Assembly: GCA_039621445.1 (NCBI GenBank)
Contig: CP154954.1
Location: 20,570,642-20,634,641 of the forward strand
From: Euglena gracilis
Taxonomy: Eukaryota
DNA: 64,000 nt
Reading direction: 5' to 3'
The notes under the pieces are model-generated. The model searched no databases, was not told the DNA's origin, and was given only the letters and a program-made list of their open reading frames with translations. The position numbers and the translations under genes were made by a program. Below, one piece after another: positions 16,329-39,968 of the stretch (positions are counted from its first letter, which is position 1; each line of letters opens with the position of its first letter).

Positions 16329-19300
16329 ATGGACGCCTCCATCCTGCACCTGCTGGCCCAGGCTCTACAGGGGCCGGCTGGTGGCCAGACTCAGCGCTTC
16401 ACGGGAAAGTGGACCTTCATCGACCGGCTGAAGAGCGTGGACTGCAACCAGGATGACACCGTGGCATGGTGGGCAACCACCGGCGGCCTCCCCTTTGATG
16501 CCTGTCCCTGCGGCAGTCTCAACCATCCATTTGTCTGCAATGAACACCAAATGGTGCCGCACAATGAATTCCAATTCGACACACCACACCACACCACACC
16601 GTATACTACTGTGATGTTGCTTGTGTTGACCAGTTTGCCATTCCCAACTTCAAATATCCCTCCCCAAAAAGAGGACCAGAAAGTCTCAGAACCACAAACA
16701 AAATTTTAATGTATTTCACCTTGGATGTACGTTTTTATTTCACCCCAAGAAGTGAGTTGCTAAGTGATCAAGATAAGGCATTTGGCCACCTGGTCACATG
16801 GTAGAATCTGTCACATGGTAGAATTTGTCACATAGTAGAATTTGTCACATGGTGGAATTTGTCACATGGCAGAATTTGCCACACGGTAGAATTTGTCACA
16901 TGGTAGAATTTGCCACATGGTAGAATTTGCCACATGGTGGAATTTTGTTGTCGAATTCACCCCCTCCACCCCCCGGTGCCAACCTGGAGGAAGGCCGGTT
17001 GGTGTTTTCGCCCGAAAGTTCCTACTGAAAAGGCAAAGAAAAGGCAAATGCCGGTGCTTGGCGCCGTGTCAAGTCCTGGGACTCCACCACCCCGACGCGG
17101 CAGGTCTTCCCGGCCAGCGGGCAGTACTCCATCCAGTGGGAGGTCCGCCAGATGGACTACGACCGGAGGTTCGCGGTCGGGGTGCTGCCCGAAAGCACGG
17201 CCCTGGACATGTGTGGCTTCCAGGGCAATGGGAAGAGTTGCCTCCTGTTGGCTTTCCATTGGTTCCCAGAATGCCAGGCGGATTCAACCAGTTCCAAGTG
17301 TGGGGTTCAGGAACACCCTGGACGATCAAGGTTTGTATCTCAGTTTTTGCCACAGAAATTTCACTCCAGAAATTTTTTGCTAGGCTAAAGTTTGGGGCAA
17401 ACCATCTCTGCTGTAACTATTGAGGTGGTTTCCCCTCCCCGGGCCCAGCGTTGATCTCGAAAGCCTTATGGGTGGACCTTCTTCCGCCTGCCAGAGGTCT
17501 TCAACCTTTTCCACAATTTTTCGAAAAGTTTCTTCAAAAAAACTACTTTTACTTGAATATTGTTAATATCATATACTGATTTTGTTAAAATCAGTATATG
17601 ATATTAACAATATTCATGCCAATTTTGGAGGCGATTCCTCAAATGATGCCTGAAGATTCAAGTTTCGTTGTTGGTGCCCCAATTTGATTCTAATATCACA
17701 ATGTTTACGGACAAAAAATCGACCCAGCGCCATCCTCTGTTGTTTTAATTTCAGCACCCTAATCCCACCCCCCACCAAATAGGACCCCGCATCAACCTTT
17801 GTGGTTGCTGATAATCCCAAGACGGTGATTTTTGGGGGGTGGGAGGGTCCACTCTTTGGATTTTTGCTGAAACTTCAGACAAAAAACATCTTCCCACAGG
17901 AGAGATCTCTCCAATTTCTTTTTTGGTTTTTTTTGCTTCCAAATATTGGTCAACCTTTGACCGATATCGCCGACTTTCATCTCCAATTTCAAACTCGGCC
18001 ATTTTTTAAGCCCCCTCCCCCTATGTCAGCTGCTGCTGCCGCCTCGTCCACCCGGCATTGCTCTGCCCCCAACAATTTCCTTGGCGCTGAGAGCCTGTCG
18101 GGTAGCATCGGTTTCGTGTTCACAAACGAGGGCGGGCAGTTCATGACCGCTGGCGAGGCTGAGACGTGATGTAAGCCATTCTCTGCTGGTCTGTGAAATT
18201 GCATAGAGCTGACTGGATTGAGTGACATGGTATGGTCCAAGACCTACACCCTGAGACGACTACACCCTTTCACCACTCTTTACCGAAATGCACCCTGACT
18301 TCTCAGAATCAATCTGCTTTTATTATTATTATTGAGCATTCCGTAAAGCCCTACCCAGGACGCCCCCAAAGATCGGGGTTTTTAGCACATTTGGCATTTT
18401 TGGGGGCAAGGAATGTGTCCAAAGCATTTCTGGGTCGATTACCCTCCCAAATAGATTTGCCCGCCTGCAAAGTTAGTGGACTGATCATTTTAGTCCCAAC
18501 CCCATGCAAAGTTATTTGGGCAGTACCAAAAACCATCGATGGACCGATTCTCCACGTTTCCTAAAACAAGTTTTTTGTTGTTGTCATATGGTGTTCATAA
18601 ATGTTTGTACATATGTGCTTCTATTCATCAAGTCATAGATTATTTGGCATTTCAGATCATTTTTTGTGCTTGCTACCTCCTCGTTTAAAAAAGATGCATC
18701 ATTTTTCACGATTGAAAAAGGGGGGCAAAGGTATTTGGACCGATCATCTTTGGCAGAATTCTCAAACACGCAAAGCTTTAGGGCACTGCAACGTCATTTG
18801 GCGGGAGTTTAGGCCATGCTGCTGTGGGGGAGGGGCTCCCCCCTTGACTGGTGGGGTCCAGACCTTGAACCCCCATCCACCAGAGTCTCGGCCTCTCTGG
18901 GGCAAGTCCTTCGGGCCCAAGGGCCCAGCAGTGAAGGCAGGCAGCACGGTGTCGGTGTCCGTGGCCAACGGCAGTCTGACCGTGACCGTGGATGAGGGCG
19001 TCGCTCAATGCGGGAGTCGGGGGCCTGTCACCCGAGGGCAGGGGGTGCAGTCAGCCAGCAGCCGTTTTTCAAGCCTTCGACCCCCCTCCCATCCACGAGG
19101 TTCTTTTTTTTGTTGTTTTCCGGCCGCCTGACGGTGTGCCAGGCAGCTGAACATCAGTGGATCATTTCCCTGCAGAGTGCACACATATGAACCACAAACC
19201 GGCAAACATGGGTCGGGGAACAGGGCTGCAACACGGCTGGCCAGGGCCCATGCTGGGTCAGCCTGCAGCCGGCCCCAACATTCCAGCCCCTGAGCTGCCC

Positions 19301-22300
19301 CCCCCCCCCCACTGAGCGCATGCCCTGCCGTGGACGGCAAGCCACTCCCGCCGGTGACAGGCAAGGCCAGGGCTGCGTGGCGGGGTTGCTTCCCCGTTGG
19401 GTTACACAGTACGCTCTCCAGTTTTCCGGACATGTTAACCGATCCCTGTTCTCCTGCCCCCCCCTTTCTGTGGGTGACCAATCTCTCAACGGAGCCCAAC
19501 CAGGGCCATGATTATTTAGACACACCACAGTGATTCATCCGAAGGCAGAAAACAAAGGGCAGCAGTTTTTTCAAATATCTGTTTTCCCCAGGTTTTTTTT
19601 GGTGATTTGTTGACCGACGTTTTTTTTTTAGGCCTAATTTCAAAATCTGTTCCATCCCACACAGCCTGCCAAAAAGGGATGGCTTTCGGGCCCAGCTTGC
19701 CCCCTGGTCGCGACCCAGCGCCATCCTCAGTTAATTTAACATAAGCCGGACCCCGGGACATCTTTTACATTTGTTGATAATCCCAAGGCGATGATGATCT
19801 TTTGTTGGGAGGGTCCACCCTTTGGATTTTTGCTGAAACTTCAGACAAAAAACATCTTCCCACAGGAGAGTCCAAGGCTAGGCTTTTCACTGGGGTCGTT
19901 TTCCTCTGAAAATGACTTCTTTCCGCAAAGGGGAAGAGTGGAAGGCAAGGAGGCTTTCCTCAAAGGGGAAGGCCAGTGGTACTTATTGCTTTCCTCCTTG
20001 CCCTTTGCTCTCTGCTACCCTCTGTAATCTGTCCATCATATCATCCTCGGCATCCCATCCCTTTCTGTGGTTTATCGGCCTTTGAGGTCCGTTAATTAGA
20101 GAAGAGGTTGCAGATGTGGGGCCGACTGGCACGCTGCACAATAACCCCCCCTCACTTATAAACCCCCGGGGTTTATAGGATCCGGTTTGGTTGGTCGGCC
20201 GAAGGGGGGTTTATAGGTGGGGGGGGGGTTATACGTGGGGGGTGGGGTTTATGTTACCGTCCTAGAGGCCAGGAGGATGATAAGCACTAGCAAAAAGTGC
20301 ATGCCTGCAACCTGCTGAAAGCTGGATTCCTGTGGTGTCTGCAACAAGGTGGGCCACAAAAACATGTTTGAACGGATGGGGCACCTAAGAGGACTGAAGA
20401 CGCAAGATTTTAAGATACTTTTTTTCCACAGTCCCAAAATGGCCGAAGAAATGGCCAATGCTGACCCCAACAATTCCAGAAAATGACTAGCAACTGGCCA
20501 AAGCTGACAAAATGGACAAAAACTTGACATCCTTCCAGAAGTGATTTTTTTAAAAAATCTGAAAAAAGCCTGCAAATTTTGCACAACTCAAAAAATGATC
20601 CTTCAAAATTCCACAGTATATTGCAAAATTGTTCTGCATTGTAAGTGTGTGGATGGATGTTTTCTGGAAAGGAAAAAATAAAATGACAAAACCGGACACT
20701 CGCTGAAAATCCGCCGAAAACGCTGAAACAAAATAGGTGGCGGGTTGGGCAGATTTGTGTGAACGCCGACCACAAGTCCAACTCGTCTCTGCTAGTGCGA
20801 AGCCCTGCTTGAGATGGCTGGAAGCTATCGCTTCGCTGTCTCCCTCTGTGCCAAAGACCAAAAGGTGGCAAACAATGTCCGGCCAGATCTGGTGTGACAC
20901 AAATGCCTGGATCAGGCTTCTTGTTCAAGGAAGCTCGCCCCCCCCCCCCCCAGGTGGGTTCTGTGGGCAGGCAGGGGAGGTTGGGCATTTTCGCCCCCCC
21001 CCCCCTCGGGGGTTGGGTTTTGGGGTGGGTAGTGCTATGGTGCACCCCGTGGCGCCGAAGGTGCCGGGGCTCAAAAATGGCCCTTTTCGTGGGATAATTG
21101 GCAGGCACTGGTGGCTGAAACCGACCCCCCCCCCTCCTGGGGGGGGTGGCTTCTATGGGCAGGCACCCCAGAGCACAAGGCACCCTCCCCCGAGGTTGGT
21201 AAAAAAGAAGCCTTATCTGGACACTTTCCAGCCGTTTTTTTCTTCCCCACCAACTGTTCCAAGGGTTCCACCATGGGGGCAGTGGTATCCTCTGGTGCCA
21301 AATTTTGCCTCCTTTCTGCCATTATCCCTCCTGTCTCCCAAAATGTCACTTAAAATGCGAAAGCCAAAGTTTTGTGTCATGATGGATGGGCCACGCTCCC
21401 GGGGATATCCTGACCCCAACCTGGTGCAACGTTCAACCCCACACCTACCCCAACGCCCCTAAACAGGAACAGGAAACTGATCCGGGAGGTCAAAACCATC
21501 GGGGGGGGGGCAGCCGGCCGGCCGTTGCGGGCAATCGCGGGGGGCCAGGGGGAGACGGGAGGCAGCCTGGAAGGGGCCGCACTGGTGGGCTGTAAGGTCA
21601 CAGCGAAGGCGGAGGCGGAGGTGTTTGCGGCGGTCTGCGCATTGCAGCCGGGCATCGGCCCGGCGGACCTGCAGAAGCTGCGGCTGTTCTCGGGGGCGGT
21701 GGCCAGCCAGGGGTTTATTCCGCTGGTTGCTCGCCGAGGGGTTGCGTTGGGAAAAGGCAAGGATGAGGATCATACGAGCTCTTTTTCATGTTGCCGAATA
21801 ACATGCATTTCCGTTCGAGGGCTGCCATTCCCTTTGCCTGGATTGCCTGTTCCAAGGGTTGTATTTCTCCAGTGTACTCGCAGATTCCTGAAATATTCAT
21901 CAGGGTCCGGTATGCTTCTCTCAGCTCTCCAGTAAGTTCAAAAAAATGTTGGCCTGCCGGGTGCTTGGGGGTTTGACAGCAGTGCATTGCATACGAAGAA
22001 CCCCTGGTCCTGGCAAGACTGGGGTGATCCGGAGGTTCGACGACTCTGACAACGCAAAGGCCCAAACTGCTCTCGTTGGTGGGTTGAGGTGGCTGATGGT
22101 TGTGTGCTGCACTGTGGCGGCAGGGAATTTCTTAAGCTGCACCCCAGCCTACCCCCCCCCCCTCTCTCTGGGTGGTCCAGCCTGCCAGCACCTTGTTTTC
22201 AGCCAACAGCCCCCAGCCAGCCTGCTTTCTTTCTCCCATCCCTCCCCCAGGTTATAAAGTTTTTTCAGGCAGGAAAAGCCAGGCTGGACCGAAAAATCCT

Positions 22301-25300
22301 GTGCACAAAGCGCCGCAGTTTCTCAAGACAGACAGAAGGGGTTTTGGGTTTTTTTTATTGGTCTGAATGTGTTGTTTTATTACTTCCCCATGGGGAAGGG
22401 TGATACCTGGGGCAGGCGCTTGCTGGGCTTATCCCCCTGGGTCGTTAAGAAAATCCTCGGCCAGCTCTGTTATTTCCCAATGCCAAAACCTTGTCATGGA
22501 TGCTTGCAGCCGCTCACTTCATCACGCGCGCGCATGTGTGTGTGTGTTGTGTGTGTGTGTGCGTGTGTGTCTGTGTGTGTGTGTTGTGTGTGTGTGTGTG
22601 TGTGTGTGTCTGTGTGTTGTGTGTGTGTTGTGTGTGTGTTGTGTGTGTGAGTGAGAGAGAGAGAGAGAGAGTGTGTGTGTGTGTGTGAGTGAGTGAGTAA
22701 GTGTGTGTGTGTGTGTGTGTGTGTGCAGCATGCTTGCGTGGCGAAGCGTGGGCCTTGCCCCACGTACCTGGTGGACATGGGATCACACGAGCAACCGTGG
22801 CTGCTCAGAAACTGCTTCACATTGTGTTCGGGTGACCAGGGCTCATTCCTTACCAAACTTTGTTGCCCCATGGCGAGTGGTCACCAGGGTTCGAAGTATG
22901 TATGTATGGATGTATGTATGTATGTATGTATGTATGTATGTATGTATGTATGTATGTATGTATGTATGTATGTATGTATGTATGTATGTATGTATGTATG
23001 TATGTATGTATGTATGTATGTATGTATGTATGTATGTATGTATGTATGTATGTATGTATGTATGTATGTATGTATGTATGTATGTATGTATGTATGTGTG
23101 TGTGTATCATACATATAGTATAGATATATATATATATATATACAGTATATAAACATGTATACATATATATATACACACACACACATATATATATATATTA
23201 TATATATATATGTTGCAGTTGAATTCTATTTGGCCCCAGGCCCAGTTGAAGTTCCAGAGAGTCCAAAATTTTTTTGTGTTATTGATGGAGCAGGGTTAGG
23301 GTTAAGAGTTCGGCTTTTCTTTTCTTTTGGCCTAACTTGTACATCCAACACGCGTCCATAAGTCCATAAGGCCGAACTCCTAACCCTGGCCTTTTTCCAT
23401 CCATAACCCAATATTTTTTTTTGCGGACCTCCCTGGAGCTTCTGCTTGCCCCCCCGGGGGGGGGGCAAACAGAAGCTTGCTGCCAGATATTTATGCATGT
23501 CTACACATATATTGCATCTGGAACGTTGATCTTTCGTTGCAAAGATGTTTGTCAGGCCGTGCCCCGGGGAGTGCCTGGGTCAAGGCCTCTCCCCTCTTCA
23601 CATGGGGAGGGCACTGGCGCTCGGGCTGAGTTGATTCTCTGGGACAGGCAGATGCCCTCCGTTATTGGGGCGATCCACTGAATTTTCGACCCCATAAGTG
23701 ACCCCTGAAGGGGTGCCCGCCCAGTCCCCCCTGCCTCCCAGGGTTCAGCGAATGGGTGGCTGCTGAACTCCCCGTCCTTCAAAACACCTTAGAGGGGATG
23801 GTCAGCATTGGATGATCCCTGTCGACCAATCGGACATGCCCGAAAGGGCATCCGCTTCAGGAGTTTGTCACGGCCACCAACTCTTTCAACTGCGATGCCT
23901 GCCACCGTGGGTTCCCGACTGGCACGCGTATGTTTGGCTGCCGCCAGTGCAATTACGACGAGTGTGAGGTCTGCATTGTCGGCAGCAGCCAGGGCAAATC
24001 CCTGGCTTTCCGAGCATGTAATGATTTTGTGTCCGAAGTTGGAGGTGGGAGTCAGGGAATTTCTTAAGCCAGACCCCGCCCCACCCCCCATCTTTGGGCC
24101 ATGGCGTGATGACGCTGTTCCCGATTTAGGAGATATGAAGGGGGAAATGGTTCTGAATGTCTTTCCAAGTCTAGCTTTGTTGTCTAATATTCTATCTCTG
24201 TGCCTTCGACCAAGGAAGGCAACCCTGAAGGGCTTGCTTGCTGCTGGCAGAGGCGCAATAAACTGGCTGGCACGGCGGGGGGGGGGGCAAATCACGGGGG
24301 GCAAATCACGTCAGTCGAAAATCAATTGTGGGTGTCGACCCAGCCACCCACAGGCACTACCCCAGGCGAGGTCGGTCGCGCCTTGAACTTCAACTTCAGT
24401 GCCGGCCAGTCTCAGGCTGTTGGGGGCATTGCTCAACCAGGGGAGGCGTGGCATACGGCAGGGCAGCCTTGTGGGCCCAGCAAGGTGTGCTTGAAGGGGC
24501 ACCCACTGATCGGGTTCAACACTGGCCAGCCTGCGGCTTGCGTGACCCAACGGGGTCCACGCACCCTCATTCTGTGACGTGCGGAGTGGGGGTTGCATTT
24601 GATGGTTTTGGCAGCCCTGTCAATTGTCCGCAGCCAATTGGATGTTATAATCTTTTCAATAGGTCATTTCAAGTGCGATTAACGGGGACCCTGGCGTTGC
24701 ACCGCCGCGCTGGGCGGCTGCGGGCCGTGGTCTGGTGTGTATCCTTGGCTCTTGCCCGAGGGGGCTGACTGATCGCACGAGATTCACGTTCGACCATCTC
24801 CAGCATTCCCCGAGGGGCCGTCCCGGAAGTGGCAAGGTGCTTAGACATTCTGTTCCACAGGTGAACCACAGAAAGAACACGGGAATCTTTCCACACAATC
24901 TGGTGCTTCCCGAAAGCTGTGTTATGTGGGACCAGGGGTTTTTTTTTAGTCGTGGATTCCCAGGGGGTGAGCCGACCAGGCCGAGCCCCCCCCCCCCCGG
25001 CCCCCCAGGGGGTGGGATGTACTTTTGATAAAGGGGTTATTTTTAGCATTTTCGCGATTTTTGGCCATTTTCAGGGGAAAATGGGTGGGTCCCCCGCCCC
25101 CCCCCCCCCCCAGGAGGGAGTGGGTGGGTTGGGAGGACCACCCCGGTCAAGCCGTCGCCCTGCCGCCGAAACTTCGACGTGGTCGTGTAGTGTCTGCGGG
25201 CAGAAGGTCCCGAAGGGGACGCGCCTCTTCGGCTGCCGGCCATGCGACTATGACGAGTGCGAGGCGTGCGTCCGCAAGGGCCTCGCGGCGCACCAGCCGG

Positions 25301-28300
25301 CCGCCGAGACCGCCTGGACCAGGGCCGTGCGGGGAACGGCGCGCCAGACGAACGGCGCGCCAGTCCACGGTTTGCAGTCCTGCAGGTATGAGGCGGGTAT
25401 GGTAAATTTTTTGAAAAAGGTGCTATTTTTTAAACATTTTCCGCGATTTTTGGCCATTTTCGGGGAAAGGTGGGTGGGTCCCCCTGTGTGCACTGTGGCT
25501 GTTTTTTTGTGGTGCCTTTTATCCCTTCTTCTGGCCTGGCGCTGTTGTTCGCCTCTGGCTCTTTTTGTCTGTGTGCGTGGAGGTGGCCGGAGCCTGGCGG
25601 GACTTACCTTGTTTACAACGCCGGCCACCAAGCGCCCGCCAGGCACATACTCCACTTTAGTTAGGGGGGGTCTCCTTCACCGTGACAACGCACTGGTTAC
25701 TCCTGTCCACGACCCCAGCAGGTGTGGTTCCCAACTCCCCCCAGGGGGTGGGTGGGTGGGGGGAACCCCCCTCCCCCCGGTCATAAGAAAACCCCTGCAC
25801 CAGAGTCGCACCCCGCCCACACAAGCGGTCACCGTTGCACTCCCGGAGATCACAAACGACCGAGCCCGCCCACGAACCTCGCCGGGCCGTGTCCGTGCCC
25901 GGCGAACTGCCGTGGCCCGCGCTGCCCTGCCCCCGGCGTTCCTGGACCGCCTGAAGAGCGTCAACTGCCCCCAGGGGAAGGCAGCGCGGCGTTCCCCATC
26001 CCTGTGCATGGCCGTTTTGCTGATTTGTCGGTTGAAGTCGCCCCCAACTGGCGACTGACCTTTTTTTTTCGGAGCGACTGGTTTCGGCTACGGCCCCGAA
26101 ACCTCCAGGCAGAAGTGATCCACCGAGTGCTGAGAGTTTGTTTATTTTGACCCGTTTTAGGTTTAGCTGCCACTCCCCAAGGGCAGGGGCCAAAGTGGCT
26201 GAATGGTTTCAGTGCCTGCACCACCTTCCTAACACATAACTCCACACTATCGCCATGTGCCCCACACACCTCCAGCCGGCCCCTGCCCGCGGGCAAGGGG
26301 GGCGAGAGGCGTGGTGTGTCACCCAGCGCGACTCCACCACCGCGGTTAAGCAGACGTTTGAGGCCGCCCAACGGGCATCTTTCCGGGCCGAAGGGCTCCC
26401 GGCACCCCGGTCCCGTCCCCGGGAGGGGGTGCCTGCTTGGAGGGGAGGGTGTGGGATTTCGTAGTAGATCTAGGAGCAGGTGTGGCACATTTGGCCAGAA
26501 GTACCTGTGTTCTTCAAAGGGACAGCTGGAAAGCCCTAAATGGCCATTTCAGACAATTCGACTCGACTGGGCCTGTTGGAGGTAGTCCCTGCCTGTCCAG
26601 GTACTCCACGAGTCCCCCCCCCCCCAGGGTTTGGTCAATACTCCACGAGTCCCCCCCCCCAGGGTTTGGTCAATTCAGCCTCGCCCCAGTAGCTTTCCCT
26701 TCACCCGCTTTCCCTCCCCCATCCCTCAACGGGTCCAGACCACCCCCCACCTGCCAAAGGGGGGGGTGTAGGTCGACAACCCAATCCGTTGGCCAACTGT
26801 CCAAGTCTATAGGTCGAGACGGGGTTGGGGGGGGGCAGTTGGTAGTCGGCTGATCAGTGGGCCAACTACCCCTCTAATGTCCCAATGGGTCAAATTCGCC
26901 AACTTTTAAGCCCCAAGGCACTCTGCCGCCTCCCCGACCCCTTCCCACAGGCCGCCCGGACTCCCTCGCGGGCGGTGCAGGTCGTGGCGATGAACCACGA
27001 CCGGCCCCTGGCGGTGGGCGTGTTCCCCGCGGCCACCGACCTGGATGAGTGCGGGGACCATGGGCCCCCCGCCCCCCCCCCCCCATGGATTTTGGGTTCA
27101 TTTTTCAAAAAAATTTCAAAAAATTTTTTCCCGGCCAAAATCCCCGTTTTCCCAAATTTGGTGAAAATGCTGTGGTGGGTGGGAGGGGGGGTGACCACCC
27201 CCTTCCCATTCTGCCCCCGCCCCCACATGGGCCCAGTGTGCTCGAACCGCCATAGTGGACCCGGATACTGCGAGCCCGAACTTCTGGCTTTTTCGGAAAG
27301 CAATTTGGAAAGGGGGCAGGTGGTTCTTGGCAGACCCAGCCCGGGACAAATTTCAAGGCATGGCGGATCGGCCTGCCGGCAGCCACTCCAGGCACCCAAG
27401 ACCCTCCACCCCCCCCCCCGGGGGGGCGGTTGAATTCAGCCCAGTCCAGCTCCCGCCTCGGGGGGGGGGGGGGGGGGTTCCCCGTGAAACGATGCTCTGA
27501 CCATTCTTGGAAGCAGCTGGAACAGGTGCCAATGAGGGGAAGAAGAGGAAGGGGTTCGAATGTCTGGTGTGTCTGCTATCCAAGTGGAACCCAGGGGGAG
27601 ATATTGATATCGCAATTTTCCCGCAATTTCCTCGTACCATGCATTCGATTTGCATTTCAAAAAGGAATGTGCAATGATTTCTGGCAATTCCTTGAATGGT
27701 CCACCAGGGAACCCAATTGTTTTCTGCTTGCTATTTTGTCACAAATTTTCCAAAATTGGCAAATTTTCCGAGTTTTGGCAAAATATGTGGGTTCTCATCA
27801 ATCGAATTCCATATTTTTGGAATCAATATGTTCCCTAAATGGCTTCTTGGAAGATGAAAAAATAAAGGGATTAATATTTTCTTAGTTCTCAATAAAATAT
27901 GTACCGCATTATTCTGGACTATATTGCTATTACCTGCAACCATTATGTATTATATTAAGGTATATGTATTATATTAAGGTATATTATATATGTATTATAT
28001 TAAGGTCATTACTATAATATACTTATTATTCATTACTATTATTGTTATAAACTGCATCATGTTATTTCCCCTCATTTTCTGGAAGGCCTCTGATATCAAC
28101 CTTCCCCCTGTCTAACCAAAGAATGGGGTTGCTGGGATCAGAACTCTGCTTGTTTTGGTTGGCGGTTGACATTAGGGATAAAATTTGCAGGTTGCTGATT
28201 TTTTTTGACTTTTTGACCTTCCTGCCCCTCTATATTACCCCATGCACATCACCCAGGGTGGGGGTGGGGGTGGTGGCACTTTTTGGGTGAAACCAACACT

Positions 28301-31300
28301 TTTTTCCAAGCCTGCTGGCTCGCCTGATTGAGCGACAGATGTTGGGGTCTTCAACCTTTCCTGCCAGCGACTGGGTTGCTCGTTCGGACGCCCATGCTGT
28401 CGATTATTACCTGGGCGAAAGAGGGTTGTCCGGCAGCATTGGGTTGGTGTTCTTCAACAAGAAATGCCAACTATATGCTTCTGCACGGGGTCCCACCATT
28501 CCCAAGTCCTGTTTTCCTTTTGGTAAACGTTGCACGTGTATTCATAAAAAATAAACTTTCAAAAAAAATGGTCTCAATGTTCTTTTGTTAGTTTTTTTTT
28601 GCGATTTTTGATTAGACTCATAATATCTACCATCTGCAGGTTCGTTTGGGACGCTGTGGGAGGCGGGAGATCCGGACCGAGCCACCAACTCCGGGTTGGG
28701 GGGCGACGGGACCCATTTGGGGCTGCGGTTATTCGTTTGGTGGATGGGCGACATTCTCAAAACATTTCAGTGCCTTGGAATAGGTGGGGACATTTGCTTT
28801 ATCTGGGCCACCTTCTTTTCTGTACATATTTTCTTTCTCTCAACGTCCACTACAGGGTTTCCACAGCACCCCTTTCCCTTTTCCTCTAAGAAATCCTGAT
28901 GATAAGGAATTCTGTTTTTTTTTGTATCCTAGTTTTGCAGCTAGTTTATCGCTCCTGAGTGAGACTTCACACACAACAAGACGGGGTTATGGTGTACGGT
29001 CAGATATTTTTTTAAAAGTGTTTTCTAAAGAATAATTTGTTTGATAATGTAGGGGGGGTCCACCCCCCCCCTCCACGGGGGTTGGAGGTCAGGCCAAGCG
29101 GGTTCCCCCCCCCGGAAGTTTTTTTTCGCACCGAAAATTTTGGAACCCCCTTCGAAAGGAACAACTATAATGAAACATGGGAGCTGGAAGGGAAATGCAG
29201 GGCCGCGTGAGTTTTTGTCAAAAATTTGCGCACCCCACTCCTCATGTAGCCATTGGATAGTACCTGAAAAAATTGTTCAACTTTTTCTGCAGGGCAGAAA
29301 CTTTTTTTTTCCACTCTTTTAACACTTTGCCTCGATTTGTTTGGCCAACTCCCCCTCTTTGAAAAAAGGAGTGGTTTTATATGTGTCTTCTTTGTCAATT
29401 GGGAAAACCATTGGAAAAAGACCGTAGCTTGTTAAAAGTGAGAAAAAAATTGTTACGAGTTCCCATGAAACGTTGTGTTGAATTTTCCCATCCTCACCCC
29501 CCCCCTTTGTCGAACAACCGGGCTTGTCCAAAGACCAAATGTGTTCTTTTCGGATATGCTTTTGGTTTCGTGAGGATGGGAAGAAAGTGTGTGAATTAAT
29601 TTCTTATCTTTTTTTTTAATTTTTTTCACTGCTGCATTGCTTTTGTATTTGTTGGGATGGTCACCATAAAATGGATGAGAATGCCAAAATGCGCTAGAAA
29701 GGCCAATGTCCCCCCCAGGCATTTGCTTAAGGGATTGCAGTACCCCCCCGGGGGGGGGGCTGGACTGCAGCTAGTCCAAATTTGGCTAGTGGGTTTTCTA
29801 GCAGACCCCCCCCCGGGGGGGTCTGCTAGCAGGGCTAGCTAGTGGAAAAAAAATTTTTGGGACCCCCAAAAATGGCCAAAAATGCCCGTTTTTGGCCATT
29901 TTTGGGAATTTTTGGAACAAAATCAGCCAAAAACCTGTTAAAAATTTTTTTCCAGTCCGGGGGACCCCCGGACCCCCCCCCCGGGGGGAGGGGGGTCTAG
30001 CTAGTCCACTTTTTCCAGTGTCTAGCCGATTGGCTAGCCAGTACCCCCCCCCCCGGGGTCCTTAAGCAAATGCCTGGTCCCCCCTCAAAAATGGTTATAA
30101 ATACCCCAAAAATGGCTAAAATTGATTTCAGCGTGCAAAAAGGTGCGAAAGGTCTGAAAATTGCGAGAAGTTGGCCCAAAAAAAGTGGCCAGAAATGAAC
30201 AAAAGTGCCAAAAAATATACGAAAAGTGGCCCAAAAAATGGCCAAATGTGCCCCAAAATGTGCCAATTTTAGGTCATAATTTCCCTGCCGTGCCAAAGGA
30301 GTTTTTCCTACTACACCGAAGGAATTTTCCGTTGTGCGGTTGCTTGGCGGGTGGGAGGTGTCCACCTCCCCCTGAACAAACCGTGATCAGAGGTCATTGA
30401 AAATCAATAGCCCCCAAGAGAAGCGGCTGCTCGAAGCACGGGGTTCAATGAAACGCACCCCCACGTTTGGCGGGATTCCCGAGGATTTCGAAAGAGATGG
30501 GCCCAGGGGCATATATCAAAAGTCGCCCCAAAAATGCCAAAATTAGCCAACACAGTCGTAGATCCCCTCCTGCGGCATTTTTTTTTGCCAACTTGGGGTC
30601 CCTCCCTGTACAATGACCGCCCCCCTCCTCTGTGATCCAAACGTCAATGGTTGTTGGACAATGGCGGGGTGGGGTAACTTTTTCAAATCCCAAACCAAAT
30701 TGTCTCATCATTTTCTCCTGTCATTTTAACTTTGTTGTTGCAGTTCCATCAGCGAATGCTGCCCCTTCCCAAAGGGCTGCTGCAGCAGTTTCAGCCAACA
30801 GTTTTCAGTAGCCTGGGACTTCAGTGGCCGGAACTTTTTTTTGGCCCACCAGTATGCGACTGTGCAAACATGGACAACCGTACGTTACCGTTTGCAGGTG
30901 GCATCCCCACCTGCCCCTTCCAGGAGTTTGCCGCCTGGGGAACTTGTCACCACAGGGCCAGCACCGGCCGACCTGTACATCGGAACGCCTGCCCCACACA
31001 GCCTCCCGGGGGGTCCATCCAAATTTGAACGTTGTGTACAGGCTGAATTTCAATGGTGCGGACCCTGCCTTAGGGGGGGGGGCTGCCTGCCTGAGGAGGC
31101 ACTCCAAGGCACCCAGATCCGACCCTGGGTAGGGCACACGGCCAAAAGTGCCTGGGCACAAGGCAAAGGCTCTCCTGGCGCCGAAGGCGCCGTAACCCAG
31201 AACAGGCCATTTTGAGGCATTTTTTTTTGGCCTACGACCAGGCAGCACCGACCCCCCCCCCCAGGGGGTGTAGTGCCTGCCTGCCCGGGCACCCCAGGGG

Positions 31301-34300
31301 CCCTCCGAGACCCCCCCCCCCGGGTTGGTCTACCTCAGCCTGATCGTGTAGGCTGGGGGTCGCTCTTTCCGGGGCCCCGCCGGCAACGACCCCATCGGGG
31401 CCCCCAGGGGCACCGTGGCAGCGGGGGACGTCGTGGAGGTGACGGTGGACTGCGGCACGGTGGCGTTCGCCGTCAACGGCCAGCGGCACGGCCCTACGGC
31501 GCGGGCGGCCGGGGGCCAGTGGCGCTTTGCGGCGTCGCTGTGCGGGCTGGGCCAGAAGGTGAAGGCCACCGCCCTCCCCATCCGCCTGGGGCAGGCCTGC
31601 CGTTCTTCTCCCGGGATCTCTAAAATCACGATTTGGACCAGGGGATTTCTTAAGCTGGAGGGAACCCCATCCCCGGGAGGAGGGTCCAGCCAGCCAGCAG
31701 CCCAAATCGGCGCTGGGAGCCCCCCCCCCCCTTCCCTGGGGTTGAGTGAAATAAAGTTGGATCCAGCCTGGCCGGAGGCCGGGCTAGCCGGCCGAAGGCC
31801 GGACCAGCTAGCCGCAGGCTGGCCAGCGAACTGGGCTGCCCAGCTCACCTATCCCTGCATTTTTTCTCTCATCACAGCCTCGCCTTAAATGCCTGGAGCA
31901 AATGTCTGGCACACGGAGGCAAAATTGTTTTTCCGAAATTGTTTCTCATCGACACAGCCCAGCACAGCCCCCTCCAGCCCCGGACCCCCCCCCCCCATTC
32001 CCCCGGGGGTCCAGCCAGCAGCTCGTTTCCTGCCAGCAGCCTTTTTTCTAGCCGGAGGCTGGACCCCCCCCCCCCGGGCCGGGGGTCCTTAAGAAATCCC
32101 CTGGTTTGAATTTTGTTGTGTCACCCAGATGTCCCTTTTTTGTTTTTGTTTTGCTACTTTTTACCTCGCATTTTCGACCTGTGCGAATTCTGTGGACACA
32201 ATCAGCAGGACTTCCATCAGCACAAGATTTCTTTTCGCATTTTTTTGTGGATATTTTATCATGTTCCAACATCCTGTGCTACTGAAATATCTGTGTTGAG
32301 TCAAATTCAAGTTAAAATCTCCGGGAAATTCAACTCCTGCTTTTTGATTTTGAAATCTCCGGGAAGGTTCAAAATCAAAAGCAGGAGTTTTTATTTTTTG
32401 AAAGGAAAAAAATTAACCTATGGGAAAATGCCACTTGAGTCTAGAGGCAAAAAGGTTTGTTGACAAGCTACCAACACAACGAGCAACAGATTGATTGAAG
32501 TCAGAGGGACACAAAAAATAACAACATGACGCGGATCCCTTTTGAACGTCTCTTGGTAGCAAGCTTTAAGGAATATAAGTGCTATGGGTATTTTCATACC
32601 CCCAAGGTAGCCTGTATTCGAGACATGGCACGAACCCGGGACCCCTACCCCTACCCCCCCCTACCAGGTTTTGAATAGTGCTGAGCTCTTAATAAGCGCG
32701 CCCCCACCCCTTCATTGACCCCCCATATATACCAGCCACTCCGTGGAGCTCTTTGGACTGAAATGCAAGGGTTTTGTGCCCGAAACGGGAGGCCAAGGGG
32801 TCAAAAAACGCTCATTTTTGGCTCAAAAACAGGGTTTCCGGGTGCGGGAGAGCAAAAAACATCGTTTTGGGCAAAAATTTTTTTCGATTTTTTTTGGACT
32901 TTTTTGACCCGGGTTTGGCCCGAAGTCAATGGGTCGGCAGCCCAAAACAGGGCGCCGGCGGGTCGAAAAACGCTCGTTTTCGGCTCAAAAACAGTTTTTC
33001 CGGGTCCGGGAGGCCAAAAAACATCGTTTCGGGCAATTTTTTTTTCGATTTTTTTCGACTTTTTTTGGCCGAAAACGGCTAAGTCGAACAGAGTGAAAAG
33101 TGTAGAAAATGGCCTAAATTGGCCGAAAAACGGCCGTATCTCGGGCTAGGCGGTGAGCTGCGGGGAAACCAAAATCCCAGTAGATAGAGCGTTCCAAGGG
33201 CTTCAATTTAGGTCTCCAGACATTTCCTTTGATTTTGCATCATTTTTGAGAAATTGTGAAAACATCGATTTTTTGACCCCCCACCCCCCCGAAAACGGCT
33301 AAGTCGAACAGTGGGAAAAGTGTACAAAATGGCCATCTGCGCCGAAAACGGCCGTATCTCGGGCTAGGCGGGGAGTTGCGGGGAAATCAAAATACCAGTA
33401 GATGGGACCTTCCAAGGGCTTCAAATTAGGTCTCCAGACATTTCCTTTGATTTTGCTTCATTTTGGAGATATTTTGAAAGTTGACATTTTTTGGCCGAAA
33501 TGGCAGAGTCTAAAGGGGGGGAGGGGGCTTATCCAGGGGGGGGGGGGGCGGGCCAATCCAACCCAGTTTGGACCCCTTCGCGCGTGAATAACTCGCGCCT
33601 GGCGGGGAGTTGGGGATCAACCCAGGTGATTCGGAAACTAGGAATCGCAGTCGACTGAAATTTTTTTTTTCGGGAACGGGGCCGGGATCATGGTGATAAT
33701 CCGCCAGTTCCCGAGGTGGCCCCGAGGGGGGGGACGGGGGGTTCAGGGGGGTTTTCCCCCAGGGGTAAGCTTCGCTCTTACCCATAAAGGGATAAGGGCT
33801 CAGCGACCCCCCCAACCCCCCCCCCCACCCTCACCCGGGTTCGTGCCATATGTGCTGTATTCAGGAAGTTTGGTTTCAACTCCAATGAAAAATTGTTTGT
33901 CAGGCAGCATTCAGAGGTAAGTTACTTTCCCACCTCACTGACCACTGAAGTCTCATCATCTTTTATATCTTTTTTTTCCCATTTCTTCGTGTGTCTTTTC
34001 GTTCTACACGTTCCGAAATCTGGAAATTGGAGGGACACCTTCAAAAAACCCCAAAAGAAGGTTTTTTTTTTAACAATCTCGACCCCTTTTTTTATTTTTT
34101 CGGCAAACCCGGCTGTGTCTGCCCACCCTAACTTTTTTTCCAGTAAACCCCTGGGGCAGCTGGTAGGAAAAAGGTGCTGGCTGCCCCTCCGGCGTTTGAT
34201 ATCCTCTGGTGTTGCTGAGTCCCTACATTGATATGAATGGGATCAGGCTTCTGCTTAAGGGATTGCAGTACCCCCCTGGGGGGGGCTGGACTGCAGCTAG

Positions 34301-37300
34301 TCCAAATTTGGCTAGTGGGATTTCTAGCAGACCCCCCCGGGGGGGTCTGCTAGCAGGGCTAGCTAGTGGAAATTTTTTTTCCAGTGCCCGGCGCGAAGCG
34401 CCGGAATTTTATTTGGAATTTTTGGAACAAATTCAGCCAAAAACCTATTTTGAAAACCTCATTTCCACCTCGGCGCGCGCCGGAGGAAAAATTTTTTCCA
34501 GTTGGGGGGACCCCCGGACCCCCCCCCCCCAGGAGGAGGGGGGTCCAGCTAGTCCATTTTTTCCAGTGGCTAGCCGACTGGCTAGCCAGTACCCCCCCCC
34601 CCCGCGGTCCTTAAGCAAAGGCCTGAATGGGATTGATCCTGACATGCTGAGGATACCTGGCCGCAAAGTTGTTGGCATCCATCAAACGTTTTTTTTTTGT
34701 TGAACAGACATCATCAGACGTCGTCGCCGAATATGAAAAAGAATGGCTGCGGCCCACTTTGTGAATTTCCAGACATTTCCTTGCGAAATTGCATTTGAAA
34801 GACTTCATTAACAAGTGCAGAAAATTTCGATCAGGACCTTGAAAGCAGCGAGGGTCATGGGGAAGACGTGAAGGGCGAAGAGACGTTTTTTTAGCTTGAG
34901 GTCCAAATCCCTCACATCAGCGACTTTAATTGATGAGGCTTGTTGAGGCAGGGGGTTCCTTAAAGGGGGGGGGCAGCCGGTTGCTGGACTTGACCTGGCT
35001 GGCACCCAGAAAACGGCAAAATGGCCCAAATCCAGTTTGTAGCTCGGTTGGGGAGATGGCTGGAGACAAACGGCTGGTTTGGAGTCAATCTTCGGCACGT
35101 TGTTTTTTTTTTGCAGATTCCTTCTCCCCCCCAAAGCACAGACATTTTCAGACATTGCGGGGGGTGGTGAGGTCGATTCTCTCCGGCAGCGGTGCTGTGG
35201 ACGGCGCCCCGCTGGCTGTGGGGACCCGAGGCGGTCCTATCCTTTGGCCGGGAGACTGATTTCCTGCCCTGATTTCCCGAGTTCCTGCGCTGGGATCCGT
35301 CTTCATTTGTGGCAGTTCGGTAAAGGAACGCTGCTGTGCATGCTGTGGTGGAGGCTTTAGCTTCAAGCCAAGCCCTCTGATGCTAATGGGATGGCTGGGT
35401 GTGAGGGTTTGCTTTGCACACAACCATCCCTCCGAACCGCTTGCCAAACGCAGAAACCTTCTAACGTCTCAACTTCATTTTATTCAATTTGGGATTATTT
35501 TCTCTTTGCTATTCTTCGGAAGTCTGTTGAAGGAAGTTTTCCTTCGTTTTCGACAACATTCGGTTGCCCAGTCCGGATTCTTGACGCCCGTCTTTTGGTC
35601 CGATTTTTCAGCGTCAATCATGGAGCAACATTGCCACTCCCAGTTGTTTCCATCCCCAATTGTGGGTGAAATTTTGCAAAAGTGCAAAAAAAAAAAACGC
35701 ACGAAGCGCCAGAAAAGAAAAGTTTAACCTTTTGGAGGGGTACCGGGTACCCCCAAGGGTCATTCCGGACCCCCCTTGGCAGGTGGGGGGTGTCCCCCAA
35801 CCCCCCTCCGGTCAAAGGGGGGGGATTGGGGGGACACTCCCACCTAAACCCCATACACCCTCCTTATATCGAACCCTGAGGTAGAAGGCACAGATGTGAC
35901 GTACACGAGACCGTCGCTGGTGTAGACTCCGGTCGTTGTCAGAAGCGAAGCGGAGGTCCGCGCTGCGCTGGCCGGTTCCAAACTCCAGGTCGAGCCGCGG
36001 CTGCAGTTCTGCCAGAAGCGCGGGGAGGTCTACAAGTATGACTCGCAGGATAATGAATGAGACCCTGTTCACATCCCCACGGGTGTGCCTCGTTGCTTAA
36101 CACACAACTTGTTTCCTGCGTTGTTTTGAGCATCCTGCTGTTTGTAGGCTTTATGATCCTTCATGCCCTTCTGCAGCGCTGTTGTGGCACAAAAGTTATG
36201 GGGCATAAAAAACAGCTTTTTTTGTCCACAAATGAACCACAAAATCACAAACTTGTGAATCGAAGAAAAAAAAACATCTGCAGAATCACAAAAAGTTTGT
36301 TGCACACAATTCCAGATACAAACCCGACGGACCCAGAGACAAATGGTGTGCTTTTCCCAAAACAGCTGCAATAAACGGTCTGGCCTGACCCGTTCCCGGC
36401 TTGCTCACTTGCCTGGTGGTAATTGTTGACCCTCCCTTTCCTCAACAGGGCCCCCCTTCCACCTATCAACTTGCCATTGGCAGCACTGGAGTGTGGTTCA
36501 CCCGCGCCTGCTTTGATGTAGTGGCCAACGTCCAGGCCATCTGTCCCACTGATGAGTCTCGAGCTCCGATGCTTGATATTGAGCACTTGTGATCTTTTTT
36601 TTTGTTCGGGTCGTTTCCATCCAGCCAGCACAGGCCACAAATACCTCACCCCTTTGTCATATGTTTGGCGATCATCCCCTCTTCTCTTTTTGAACCATCT
36701 TTTTGGGCGGTTGCTTTGCGCATTGGCTTCAAAGTGACCTATTCCTGCTGATCACCCGGCACAAATTCTCTCACACGATACCTGCTCCGCAAAAACACAC
36801 AAGAGCACAAGGGGTGTTGTGGTGGACCCTCACACTGGCGTTTGTCACACAAGTGTCACACAAGTGTCACACAAGTGTCACACAAGTGTCACACAAGTGT
36901 CACACAAGTGTCACACAAGTGTCACACCGCCACTGTGACACGCAGCGGCAGTCCTGCCTTGTCCTGGGACAGCCGTCGGGCAGTCCCCCCCCCCCCCTGC
37001 CGTTACCCGGTGGCACTGCCGGGGATGACTGCGGGACCCTGGTGGGCCTGCAGGTGCGGCTGCGCACGGCAGAGAAGTTGGAGGTCCTACCCAGGCCCGC
37101 CGGTGCCATTTGTGCGGGGCATCCAATGCATGCGCGCAAATCAGAGTTATTAACTGTTCGGCCACACTTCAGTGTAAATGATCACTGTGGAGAGATTGGG
37201 GCGGGGGGGGGGGGCTCAATGGGATTCTCCTGCATTGTTTCAGAAGGTGAATATTGAGGGGACAAGCATGGCACAGATAAAGAGATCGGTGCAGTGCGCA

Positions 37301-39925
37301 GGAAAAAGAAAGGGCAACGTTCCTTTCATTTTGCAAATATTAAGGGAACTTCAGCTTCGGATGGTTTCACCCACAATTTCTTCAACAAAGCCTGTTTCCC
37401 CGGGGGTCAAAACGCCCTGGGATGAAGTGCATGGCCAAGCAAATGCCCCAGAAAGAATCCTCTCCGGCAACCTCACCTCCCAGTAAAGCGCCTTTCAGGT
37501 CCTGCCCATACCATTAATTAAGGTGTGTCCGACCCCACCCCACCACCCCCATGGGGGGGGGGGACTGGCTAGTTTTTCCCCCGAGTGATTGACTGTTTTT
37601 TTTTCCCGGATCTGACTGGTTTTGTTTTCCCCTGGCTCTGTAGGGGGTTGGGTCGGCCAGGAATGGCTGAAAGTGGCCACCCAGTGCCGAAGGCGCCGGA
37701 GGCTTTTTTATATATAAAGGGTTTCGTCCAATATCCATTGGTTTTGGGCCATTTTTAGTTTAGTGGTATTGCCCTCACTGGCCAATGACCGACCCCGCCC
37801 TCGGTGTAGCAAGTGGGTGACTGGTTTTCAAGAAATTTGACCTTTTTGCTTTTTGCTTAGTTTTTTGAAAGCGGACAGTGACCCCCGGTGAGCAACGGTG
37901 TGGTGCCGCCCAGGACATGGTCCCAATTATGGCTGACCTGTTACGATGCAAAGCTGTCAGGTTCTAATGGTCATCCCCCCTGCCGGCCACCGAAACAACA
38001 AATTCTTGGCAGTGTTTTTCTGGTACCCCCCCCCCTAAATACCAACGCCCACCATAAACCAACCACCCCCCGGTCGGGGGTTGTAGGTGACCTGGGGAAT
38101 ATAGGTGTTTTTGGCACCTGGTTGTACGACTACCACCCGCTGGGTGGGTGCAGGTCAGGGGGTGCGTATGACCCCCCCCTTGGTCAGGGGTTGTTGGAAC
38201 CTGGTCGGTAGGCAAGGGGGGGGGGCAGTTGTAGAATCCGTGTGGCCAATCCTTGCATTTTGTGTGACATTGGTCTTGGAGTGCTCAGGGAATACCCGCC
38301 TACCCGCCTTTCAAGGGCTCAAAAAGTCATCGTCAAGTTGCAGTTGGCACGAATTTGTTGCGCCGCAAAAATTATTTCCCCCTCCTTTGCTGGCCGTGAA
38401 ATGATTGCCCTCCGGGGGGGTGCGAGTGGGGTAGGGTAGGTCTGCTTTCCGTCCTGGAGGTCCACCGGCCCAGACGTGATGCACTCTGGCCTGCCGGAGA
38501 GGTCGGCCACCCTGACCCCGGGGCCCATTGTGCCCCATGCCAACAAGACGGGCACCGTCCGGCAATATGACACGTCAGACAACACCTACCTGGTGGAGTT
38601 CACCGACGGCATTGAGAAGTGGGTGACGCGCGCCTGCTTCGACGTGGCGATTGGGCAAGGTGGGCTGAAGTGTTCATTCCCCGTTGACCTTGAGATGTTT
38701 GAAAGGGCGAGGTGTGGCGGTGGCCCATGCAACGCAGCCATGGTCTCTCCCTTTTATGGCTTCTTCTCCCCTGTTTTCCTGTTTTCCCTAAATATCCTGT
38801 TTTTTTTATATACGGTTGGCTTTCCCCTACTTCGATCCATGCCACTTTGCGACTGAGGGCGGCTTCACCCGCTGGCACATTGGCAATCAGGAAGCCCTCG
38901 GCGAAGGGAGCCCCGGGGCCCCAGGATTCAGGACAATTTCAGCATCCTTGGGCGACGCCATGCCCATGCAGCACCGGCACACGAATTCCGCCGCATTTCC
39001 GGTTTAGGGTGAGGGCCTGCTGCGCCGACCGGGTCGTCCGCGGCCCCACGTGGCAGTGGGGGAATCAGGACGGCGGTGCCGGGACCGTGGGGACTGTGGT
39101 GACCCTGGACTTCAAGGGGCCCGAGTTCGTCAAGGTGGCTTGGCCGACGGGTTCCAGACAGCAACGCCTTCGTCAGTCAAGAGGCGAATCCCTGTCAGGG
39201 AAAAGTATCCGACAAGTGTACAGCATTTGCCTGATTGGTCTCGAGAGGATGGCCGTACTGAACTACAAAATGTAAAAATGCCTGTTTTTGACAGGGAAGG
39301 ACAAAGATAAGAATTGGTGCCAAATTGGCCCCCACTTCAATCAATTTTTGCCCAACCATCGAAAGACCATCTTTTTACCATCTTTTTCACTAAAGCTGAA
39401 AGCTTTGCTGGACCCAATTCGACGACCACTGCCAATTACCGGCAAACTGACATCCAACTGAGCCCAAGTACATTCGACAAGCCCATCCCACCAAAGCCGG
39501 GGCAGATTGCAGCTTTTCTTGTAGCTTTGCGATTCTGTTGGTGTTGGTGGTGGTGGTGATGATGGAAATGCATGCCGGTGCCAGATACTCTCCTCAGCGA
39601 CAGACAGTGCACCATTGATTTTTTCATCAAGTGGGCAGCAAAGGTTTGTGCCAAATATGCTCAAGCCTCAAAAAATGCCACTCTAATTGTACTGGAATTT
39701 CCAAACCTCATTACCTGTTTGTGACAAGTCTCCATGTGTTTTTTTTTATGTGCCGAAGCGTAATGAGCTGCATGTTGAAATGGACGCTGACCCAACCACA
39801 AACCCTAGTGGCAAGTCTTCTGCCTTGACTCACAGGGCTTTGCAATAACCAATTTTTTGCTCGCTTTATCGTCGTCGTCGTCGTCGTCATCATCATCATC
39901 ATCTTCATCATCATCATCATCATCC

Positions 39926-39968
<43 letters not shown>

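Follow-up and report, generated by a model that had tools for sequence, protein, structure and literature searches.

Complementary ends at a fixed register in the apparently nonconventional introns of a duplicated Euglena gracilis gene

The window analysed here is a 64,000-nucleotide stretch of the Euglena gracilis genome (assembly GCA_039621445.1, contig CP154954.1, positions 20,570,642 to 20,634,641 of the forward strand). Our subject is an internally duplicated gene on its forward strand and the introns that interrupt it (Table 1; all positions below are those of the window). Among the domain matches of the gene product, MIB_HERC2 lies above the cut-off (E 1e-12), and the zinc-finger, SPRY-like and other matches lie below it. 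We examined 22 introns: 14 shown by RNA, 5 derived from contig coordinates and 3 placed by paralogy; the exon structure between 19036 and 21500 is left out of this list of parts. Four of them, introns 1 to 4 of Table 1, had been singled out in an earlier note on this DNA as lacking CAG/CTG while keeping complementary termini at a constant distance from the splice sites. The evidence set out below indicates that they are very probably ordinary nonconventional introns of a euglenid nuclear gene.

Besides six small runs, guessed to contain RNA, the run search provided four raw RNA-seq runs from the same organism. The RNA mapping covered positions 23110-43109, with two data sets of contigs (X15 and X16) and two of raw reads (X21 and X24). 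The joint of intron 3, 27055|28402, has a single spanning contig in X15 and another in X16, and 3 raw reads of X24 with 3 different starts cross it; that of intron 4, 28482|31385, is likewise spanned by one contig in each of the two contig sets and by 7 raw reads of X24 with 5 starts. These are exactly the junctions that had been inferred for the two introns before any RNA was consulted. The first mates of X24 lie on the minus strand, as expected from plus-strand RNA in a usual stranded library. Among the joints listed, 12 more belong to the same gene, none of them with GT..AG ends. Further, 14 DNA-type runs contain 0.80-0.83 of the sampled words from 22000-31999; hence, the intron-bearing form is the genomic form. 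When the exons from 23828 to 42500 are joined at the RNA-supported and contig-derived joints, they yield 612 codons without a stop.

For introns 1 and 2 the joins are predicted from comparisons within the gene and with related proteins. The join 18151|18901 matches the RNA-confirmed 28482|31385 of the paralogous gene half in alignment column, phase and spacing. The join 22053|22762 gives the string 'SDN|TYLV', which is found uninterrupted in the RNA-confirmed exon 38499-38651, and whose site is also interrupted by the inferred intron 36055-36460: the 'DN|TY' site is thus split at 22053|22762 and 36054|36461 and intact in the third copy. In tblastn comparisons, residues 125|126 of the Euglena gracilis transcript protein P0005 fall on 18151|18901, residues 98|99 of the same protein on 17217|18071, and residues 240|241 of a second such protein, P0003, on 22053|22762, in each case without gaps. 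Protein evidence alone would also allow intron 1 a join two codons downstream (18157|18907), which comes without the pairing of the ends. A CAG/CTG alternative for the same intron (18134-18904) was dropped, as it breaks the reading frame (worked out by eye).

All four introns have Watson-Crick pairs at all three positions between +4..+6 and -8..-6, counted from their 5' and 3' ends respectively, as found by reading of the sequence and by script; the four complementary triplet pairs that had been reported are correct letter for letter. We took helix length as the number of uninterrupted pairs counted inward from +4/-6. With ends placed at random in the window and the four intron lengths kept, a helix of at least 7 pairs at this fixed register arose by chance in 477 of 200000 trials and one of at least 11 pairs in 32 of 200000. 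Some of the junctions can slide, i.e. other placements give the same mRNA: there are three such further placements for intron 1, one for intron 2, two for intron 3 and none for intron 4. Where a junction could slide, the earlier note had chosen the placement that fits the register, which is a caveat on its pairing claim. None of the four introns starts with GT, and GT-AG or GC-AG ends are reachable by sliding in 0 of the 22 introns examined, these four included. An Rfam scan of the whole 64-kb window returned no matches at gathering scores, whether to group I, II or III introns or to other curated RNA families.

The pairing extends well beyond these four introns. With controls given the same freedom to slide as the real introns (best allowed slide), 11 of the 14 introns shown by RNA have complete pairing at +4..+6/-8..-6, nine of them by Watson-Crick pairs alone, as against 38 of 182 mismatched partners, in which the 5' and 3' ends come from different introns. 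No permutation out of 20000 reached 11 fully paired introns, and the RNA-shown introns whose junctions are not slidable are paired in 3 of 3 cases. A scan across registers gave, among the 14, paired introns as follows: 11 at (4,6), 11 at (5,7), 9 at (6,8), 10 at (7,9) and 8 at (8,10), versus 2 at (3,5). The helix therefore starts sharply, 3 nt from the 5' cut and 5 nt from the 3' cut. Within these two spacers pairing is if anything depleted (1-2 of 11 introns), and pairs are present in 7-10 of 11 introns along the diagonal that runs inward from +7/-9 to +12/-14, where about 4 would be expected.

The introns that fit the register, 18 in number (11 shown by RNA, 4 derived from contig coordinates and 3 placed by paralogy) and lying between 17218 and 42399, provide a covariation set. 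At +4/-6 the pairs are C-G in 15, G-C in 2 and A-T in 1; at +5/-7 they are A-T in 15, G-C in 2 and G.T in 1; and at +6/-8 they are G-C in 13, A-T in 2, and T-A, C-G and G.T in 1 each. Compensated non-consensus pairs are thus present at all three positions of the motif, and departures from CAG/CTG are almost always compensated, in line with the earlier note. No similarity was found between the interiors of positionally homologous introns; hence, the covariation spans independent introns rather than a single lineage. Nevertheless, the sequence is not irrelevant, because the set has a strong orientation bias: +4 is C in 15/18, +5 is a purine in 18/18, and the downstream exon opens with a purine in 17/17 fitted introns, introns 1 to 4 among them. 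In addition, the first base of the intron is a purine in 14/17 and its last base a pyrimidine in 14/17. Among RNA-shown introns, the exon starts with a purine in 11/11 of the chosen placements versus 10/16 of the other allowed ones. Of the proposal that pairing and spacing, not sequence, define the splice sites, the positive half is supported (11/14 introns pair at the register and 2/14 one step outward, and published knock-ins agree), whereas 'not sequence' is an overstatement in view of these preferences. The uninterrupted helix is on average longer in the non-CAG introns than in the CAG ones (7.6 versus 5.5 bp; one-sided Mann-Whitney p = 0.048, 8 versus 10 introns), with p = 0.18 among RNA-shown introns only, which amounts to no more than a weak hint of longer helices in the former.

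We directly observe the anatomy of these introns, the statistical excess of pairing, and the removal from RNA of two of the four. A mechanism consistent with this can be sketched as follows: the triplet at +4..+6 pairs with that at -8..-6 and the pairing runs inward, which draws the two splice sites close to each other; 3 nt on the 5' side and 5 nt on the 3' side remain unpaired, with the downstream exon starting with a purine. The machinery would then read the helix and the fixed spacers, cut at both ends, join the exons and, as the literature on Euglena suggests, release a circular intron. Several points weigh against the reading of the four as ordinary nonconventional introns. X21 has zero reads at 27055|28402 or 28482|31385, and the RNA nature of X15 and X16 is a guess. 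Beyond the 15 joints listed there are 162 more, and alternative junctions may exist among them. The junctions 18151|18901 and 22053|22762 are predicted from paralogy and protein collinearity. The best protein relatives from Euglena gracilis are only 52-62% identical to the gene product, and the window's own protein was not found in a large protein collection with exon 31385-31561 as query or, among longer proteins, with exon 17080-17217. The rule also has exceptions: three RNA-shown introns (23986-24477, 35223-35924, 38884-39025) and one inferred intron (36055-36460) are incompletely paired at the register. Lastly, back-joints between the ends of an intron, the mark of a circular product, do not occur among the 15 joints listed.

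The anatomy of euglenid nonconventional introns has been described in several studies (PMC4770533, PMC3935182 and PMC6221363, in part; PMC12501133; here and below, 'in part' marks sources cited from a portion of their text). According to Milanowski et al. (2016, in part), it is complementarity and not sequence that is conserved at +4,5,6/-8,-7,-6, with CAG/CTG in 33 of 55 introns and with border positions that favour purines or pyrimidines. An endonuclease that recognises structure, similar to those acting in tRNA splicing, was put forward by Milanowski et al. (2014; PMC3935182, in part). The idea that pairing plus spacing defines these introns is therefore already published and is not a new implication of this locus. 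Knock-in experiments in E. gracilis have put motif, spacer length and pairing to the test (Nomura et al., 2025; PMC12501133): splicing is abolished by single changes in CAG or CTG; the required spacers are 3 nt at the 5' end and 5 (or 6) nt at the 3' end; function is lost when the pairing beyond the motif is removed; and synthetic introns that follow these rules splice. Introns with CGG-CCG and CGG-CTG splice too, and complementary swaps of the middle pair mostly fail, only CTG-CAG being spliced. The compensation tests of its main text (in part) concern the middle position only; the supplementary figures may hold more.

The code formulated in that study, N3-CDG/CH'G-N5-6|R, covers 61.2% of E. 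agilis nonconventional introns (PMC12501133, in part). We applied it as C at +4, non-C at +5 and G at +6, C at -8, G at -6, a complementary middle pair and a purine at the exon start. Only the CGG/CCG of 28483-31384 fits it among the four introns, and AAG/CTT, CAT/ATG and GAG/CTC do not. Overall it fits 5/14 RNA-shown, 4/5 contig-inferred and 1/3 paralogy-only introns, and the RNA-shown CGA/TCG, CAC/GTG, CAA/TTG and GGG/CTC also lie outside. At +6/-8 the RNA-verified introns of the gene cover all Watson-Crick pair types, and at +4/-6 they include compensated pairs other than C/G. It is tempting to suppose that the code is too narrow, and that the machinery reads no more than the end of the helix and a ruler of 3 nt and 5 nt (the geometry of a 2-nt 3' overhang), CAG/CTG being preferred or ancestral and not required; we hold this as a tentative view with somewhat less than an even chance. 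The tendency of non-CAG introns towards longer helices hints weakly the same way. In any case, the out-of-code motifs are a nuance and not a discovery, since the rule of complementarity over sequence is already found in Milanowski et al. (2016, in part).

Recognition might also be purely structural, as the earlier note has it: any Watson-Crick triplet at +4..+6/-8..-6 with 3-nt/5-nt spacers would suffice as a helix-end ruler, e.g. for a duplex-measuring nuclease that leaves a 2-nt 3' overhang before the ends are ligated. The RNA-shown splicing of the CAT/ATG, CGA/TCG, CAC/GTG, CAA/TTG and GGG/CTC introns speaks for it, and pairing alone accommodates 11/14 RNA-shown introns versus 5/14 for the CDG/CH'G code. 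The sharp end of the helix and the unpaired spacers likewise favour it, spacers of 3 and 5 nt would leave the intron stem with 2 nt overhanging at its 3' side, and RNase III with a ligase is offered as one option in PMC12621601 (in part). Yet such indifference to sequence is hard to reconcile with the orientation bias (C-G at +4/-6 in 15/18, purine at +5 in 18/18 and at the exon start in 17/17) or with the middle-pair swaps, of which only CTG-CAG spliced (PMC12501133), and four introns splice without pairing of the motif; we consider it rather unlikely in this strict form. A different possibility is that the normal spliceosome removes the introns, with the terminal helix only drawing the ends together and standing in for a splice-site consensus. 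This is given as a third possibility for diplonemids, which retain a full spliceosome (PMC12621601, in part), and one intron of the gene, 36530-37023, does begin with GT. Against it, 22/22 introns are without GT/GC-AG at any allowed slide. Moreover, circular excision products, not lariats, are reported for Euglena (Guminska et al., 2021, cited via PMC12621601, PMC11282704 and PMC12501133, in part), where nonconventional introns are removed later than conventional ones (PMC11282704; PMC6221363, in part). We thus judge the spliceosome improbable here; the 'rather than U1/U2' of the earlier note was itself an inference from the missing GT-AG.

The joints might also not reflect splicing at all, and stem instead from template switching at short direct repeats, from assembly errors or from transcripts of an intron-less copy. 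A direct repeat of 1-4 nt does lie at most junctions, and X15 and X16 are contigs from runs guessed to be RNA. However, three RNA-shown joints are free of repeats, 28482|31385 among them; identical joints recur in raw stranded RNA reads from a separate study (X24); the 612-codon frame is open across all joints together; the content of the 14 DNA-type runs (0.80-0.83 of the words from 22000-31999) makes the intron-bearing form genomic; and an intron-less retrocopy would imply the same splicing. An artefact of this kind is accordingly very improbable. That the junctions are simply misplaced and the introns really conventional GT-AG ones found nothing in its favour: no slide yields GT/GC-AG in any of the 22, the joins are set by RNA or protein collinearity, and the two RNA-confirmed introns already contradict it. 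Ordinary nonconventional introns are the reading we retain.

Table 1. Introns 1 to 4, the gene that carries them and its other introns, with positions in the window and the triplets found at the +4..+6/-8..-6 register.
Feature	Start	End	Strand	Terminal letters	Register triplets	Helix	Evidence and remarks
Intron 1	18152	18900	+	GG..GG	GAG/CTC	18155-18165 with 18885-18895, 11 bp (one G.U)	very probably nonconventional; join by paralogy and protein collinearity
Intron 2	22054	22761	+	GC..CC	AAG/CTT	22057-22064 with 22749-22756, 8 bp	very probably nonconventional; join by paralogy and protein collinearity
Intron 3	27056	28401	+	GA..TC	CAT/ATG	27059-27065 with 28390-28396, 7 bp	very probably nonconventional; RNA contigs and reads
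Intron 4	28483	31384	+	GC..GC	CGG/CCG	28486-28494 with 31371-31379, 9 bp (one G.U)	very probably nonconventional; RNA contigs and reads
Host gene	16392	42500	+				provisional ends; internally duplicated; zinc-finger, SPRY-like, small beta-barrel-like, MIB/HERC2 and C-terminal helical segments
Intron	17218	18070	+		CAG/CTG		predicted; paralogy and P0005 collinearity; position homologous to intron 3
Intron	23986	24477	+				RNA-shown; register pairing incomplete, best 2/3
Intron	24524	25167	+		CAG/CTG		inferred from X16 contig coordinates
Intron	25317	25934	+		CAG/CTG		RNA-shown
Intron	25969	26290	+		CAG/CTG		contig coordinates; paralog 16410-16478 contiguous, so no first-half counterpart
Intron	26386	26973	+		CGA/TCG		RNA-shown; no counterpart in paralogous first half
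Intron	31564	35174	+		CAC/GTG	11 bp	RNA-shown; contains 218-bp tandem repeat and a dispersed repeat
Intron	35223	35924	+		CCG/CTG		RNA-shown; mismatch at middle pair
Intron	36055	36460	+				contig coordinates and paralogy; protein position as intron 2; motif unpaired
Intron	36530	37023	+	GT..GG	CAG/CTG		contig coordinates
Intron	37089	38498	+		CAG/CTG		contig coordinates; 3 extra letters in RNA contigs directly before
Intron	38653	38854	+		CAA/TTG		RNA-shown
Intron	38884	39025	+				RNA-shown; short; CAG and CTG off usual register
Intron	39156	39415	+		CAG/CTG		RNA-shown
Intron	39500	39782	+		CAG/TTG		RNA-shown; G.U at +6/-8
Intron	39830	41121	+		CAG/CTG		RNA-shown; junction cannot slide
Intron	41196	41668	+		GGG/CTC		RNA-shown
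Intron	41751	42399	+		CAG/CTG		RNA-shown; junction cannot slide

The remaining introns of the gene are collected in Table 1. The inferred intron 36055-36460, whose motif is unpaired, has a deeper 5-bp helix on the same diagonal, +9..+13 with -15..-11 (read by eye). Downstream of it, a single exon 36955-37088 following 36054 was considered and rejected, as it lacks pairing and misfits the paralogs; two exons, 36461-36529 and 37024-37088, take its place, in agreement with the contig coordinates. Similarly, a 7-nt micro-exon between 37084 and 38499 was rejected in favour of the simpler combination of an exon end at 37088 and a 3-letter difference in the contigs. The latter lies at 37084-37088, where the X15 and X16 contigs carry three extra letters that could be an allelic, paralogous or assembly difference. 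Intron positions differ between the paralogous parts 16392-17217 and 25935-27055; such differences in intron presence fit the frequent gain reported for nonconventional introns.

Repeats are found in and around several of the introns. Positions 33069-33479, inside intron 31564-35174, hold a tandem repeat with a 218-bp unit (1.9 copies, 88% matches), and the bins over it have by far the highest contig word depth of the mapped stretch (20335 and 14553 in X15, 6111 and 4393 in X16), which suggests an element with either many copies or strong transcription. A dispersed repeat has its copies at 29716-30076, in intron 4, and 34244-34625, in intron 31564-35174 (76.5% identical over 400 columns), and contig depth is high at the first copy (4176 in X15). 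At 22535-22725, intron 2 contains a (TG)n microsatellite that is long and imperfect. A near-perfect (GTAT)53 at 22896-23107 follows about 135 nt after the end of intron 2, probably in the next intron. Among the reads, 218 raw reads of X21 have a joint that runs back 126 bases (25111 to 24986) and loose ends that are runs of C, and similar loose ends are seen at 27084; the long C/G homopolymers of these introns are the probable source of what would then be an artefact. In X24, 23 reads match from 38616 onwards and differ before it (agreement 0.89), and probably come from a paralogous gene sharing this part of the exon.

Nonconventional introns are more numerous than all others in Euglena genomes, and the class is of real interest. 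The locus is a textbook example of it, all 22 examined introns being nonconventional, and offers no new principle; it does provide a small natural data set of compensated pairs that lie outside the CDG/CH'G signature and are spliced in vivo.

Among other related systems, the noncanonical introns of hemistasiid diplonemids (PMC12621601, in part) likewise lack GT-AG and have extensive pairing of their ends that brings the splice sites together. In contrast to the present case, neither a fixed CAG/CTG motif nor a 3/5-nt register is described in the cited portion of that source. The closest protein relatives of the host gene are from Euglena gracilis and not from diplonemids: exon 17080-17217 obtained 5 hits among 1.84 billion representative proteins, of which the two Euglena gracilis transcript proteins are the closest. 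The bulge-helix-bulge introns of tRNAs and archaea, processed by the tRNA splicing endonuclease, would resemble those described here in recognition by structure and distance, protein-only cleavage with ligation, and circular introns, and the likeness has been proposed (PMC3935182 and PMC12621601, in part). Elsewhere, nonconventional introns are said to have no structural likeness to tRNA introns (PMC12621601 and PMC6221363, in part). In our introns, exon-exon pairing of the bulge-helix-bulge kind gave no enriched diagonal, the single cell -2 with +4 (10/11) not being significant over 462 cells; hence, the second, exon-side helix is absent and these are not bulge-helix-bulge introns. MITE-like DNA transposons, from which nonconventional introns have been hypothesized to originate (PMC11282704, in part; PMC12501133), share the terminal inverted repeats and the short direct repeats at the borders. 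The presence of intron 2 and the uninterrupted state of the paralogous exon 38499-38651 also recall their presence/absence pattern. Unlike in MITEs, the direct repeats here vary from 0 to 4 nt, the inverted repeat is set back by 3 and 5 nt from the ends of the excised unit, and the interiors of the four introns are dissimilar to those of their positional homologues, only one having a repeat elsewhere in the window.

The closest match is with the euglenid nonconventional introns themselves (Tessier et al.; Milanowski et al., 2014, 2016; Guminska et al., 2018, 2021; Nomura et al., 2025), from which nothing essential is different. The common features are the absence of GT-AG, pairing of +4,+5,+6 with -8,-7,-6, mostly as CAG/CTG and still complementary where other letters occur, a helix continuing inward, spacers of 3 nt and 5 nt, a purine at the exon start, slidable junctions at short direct repeats, and frequent gain or loss between gene copies. 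The difference is from the experimentally defined CDG/CH'G signature, outside which three of the four motifs lie.

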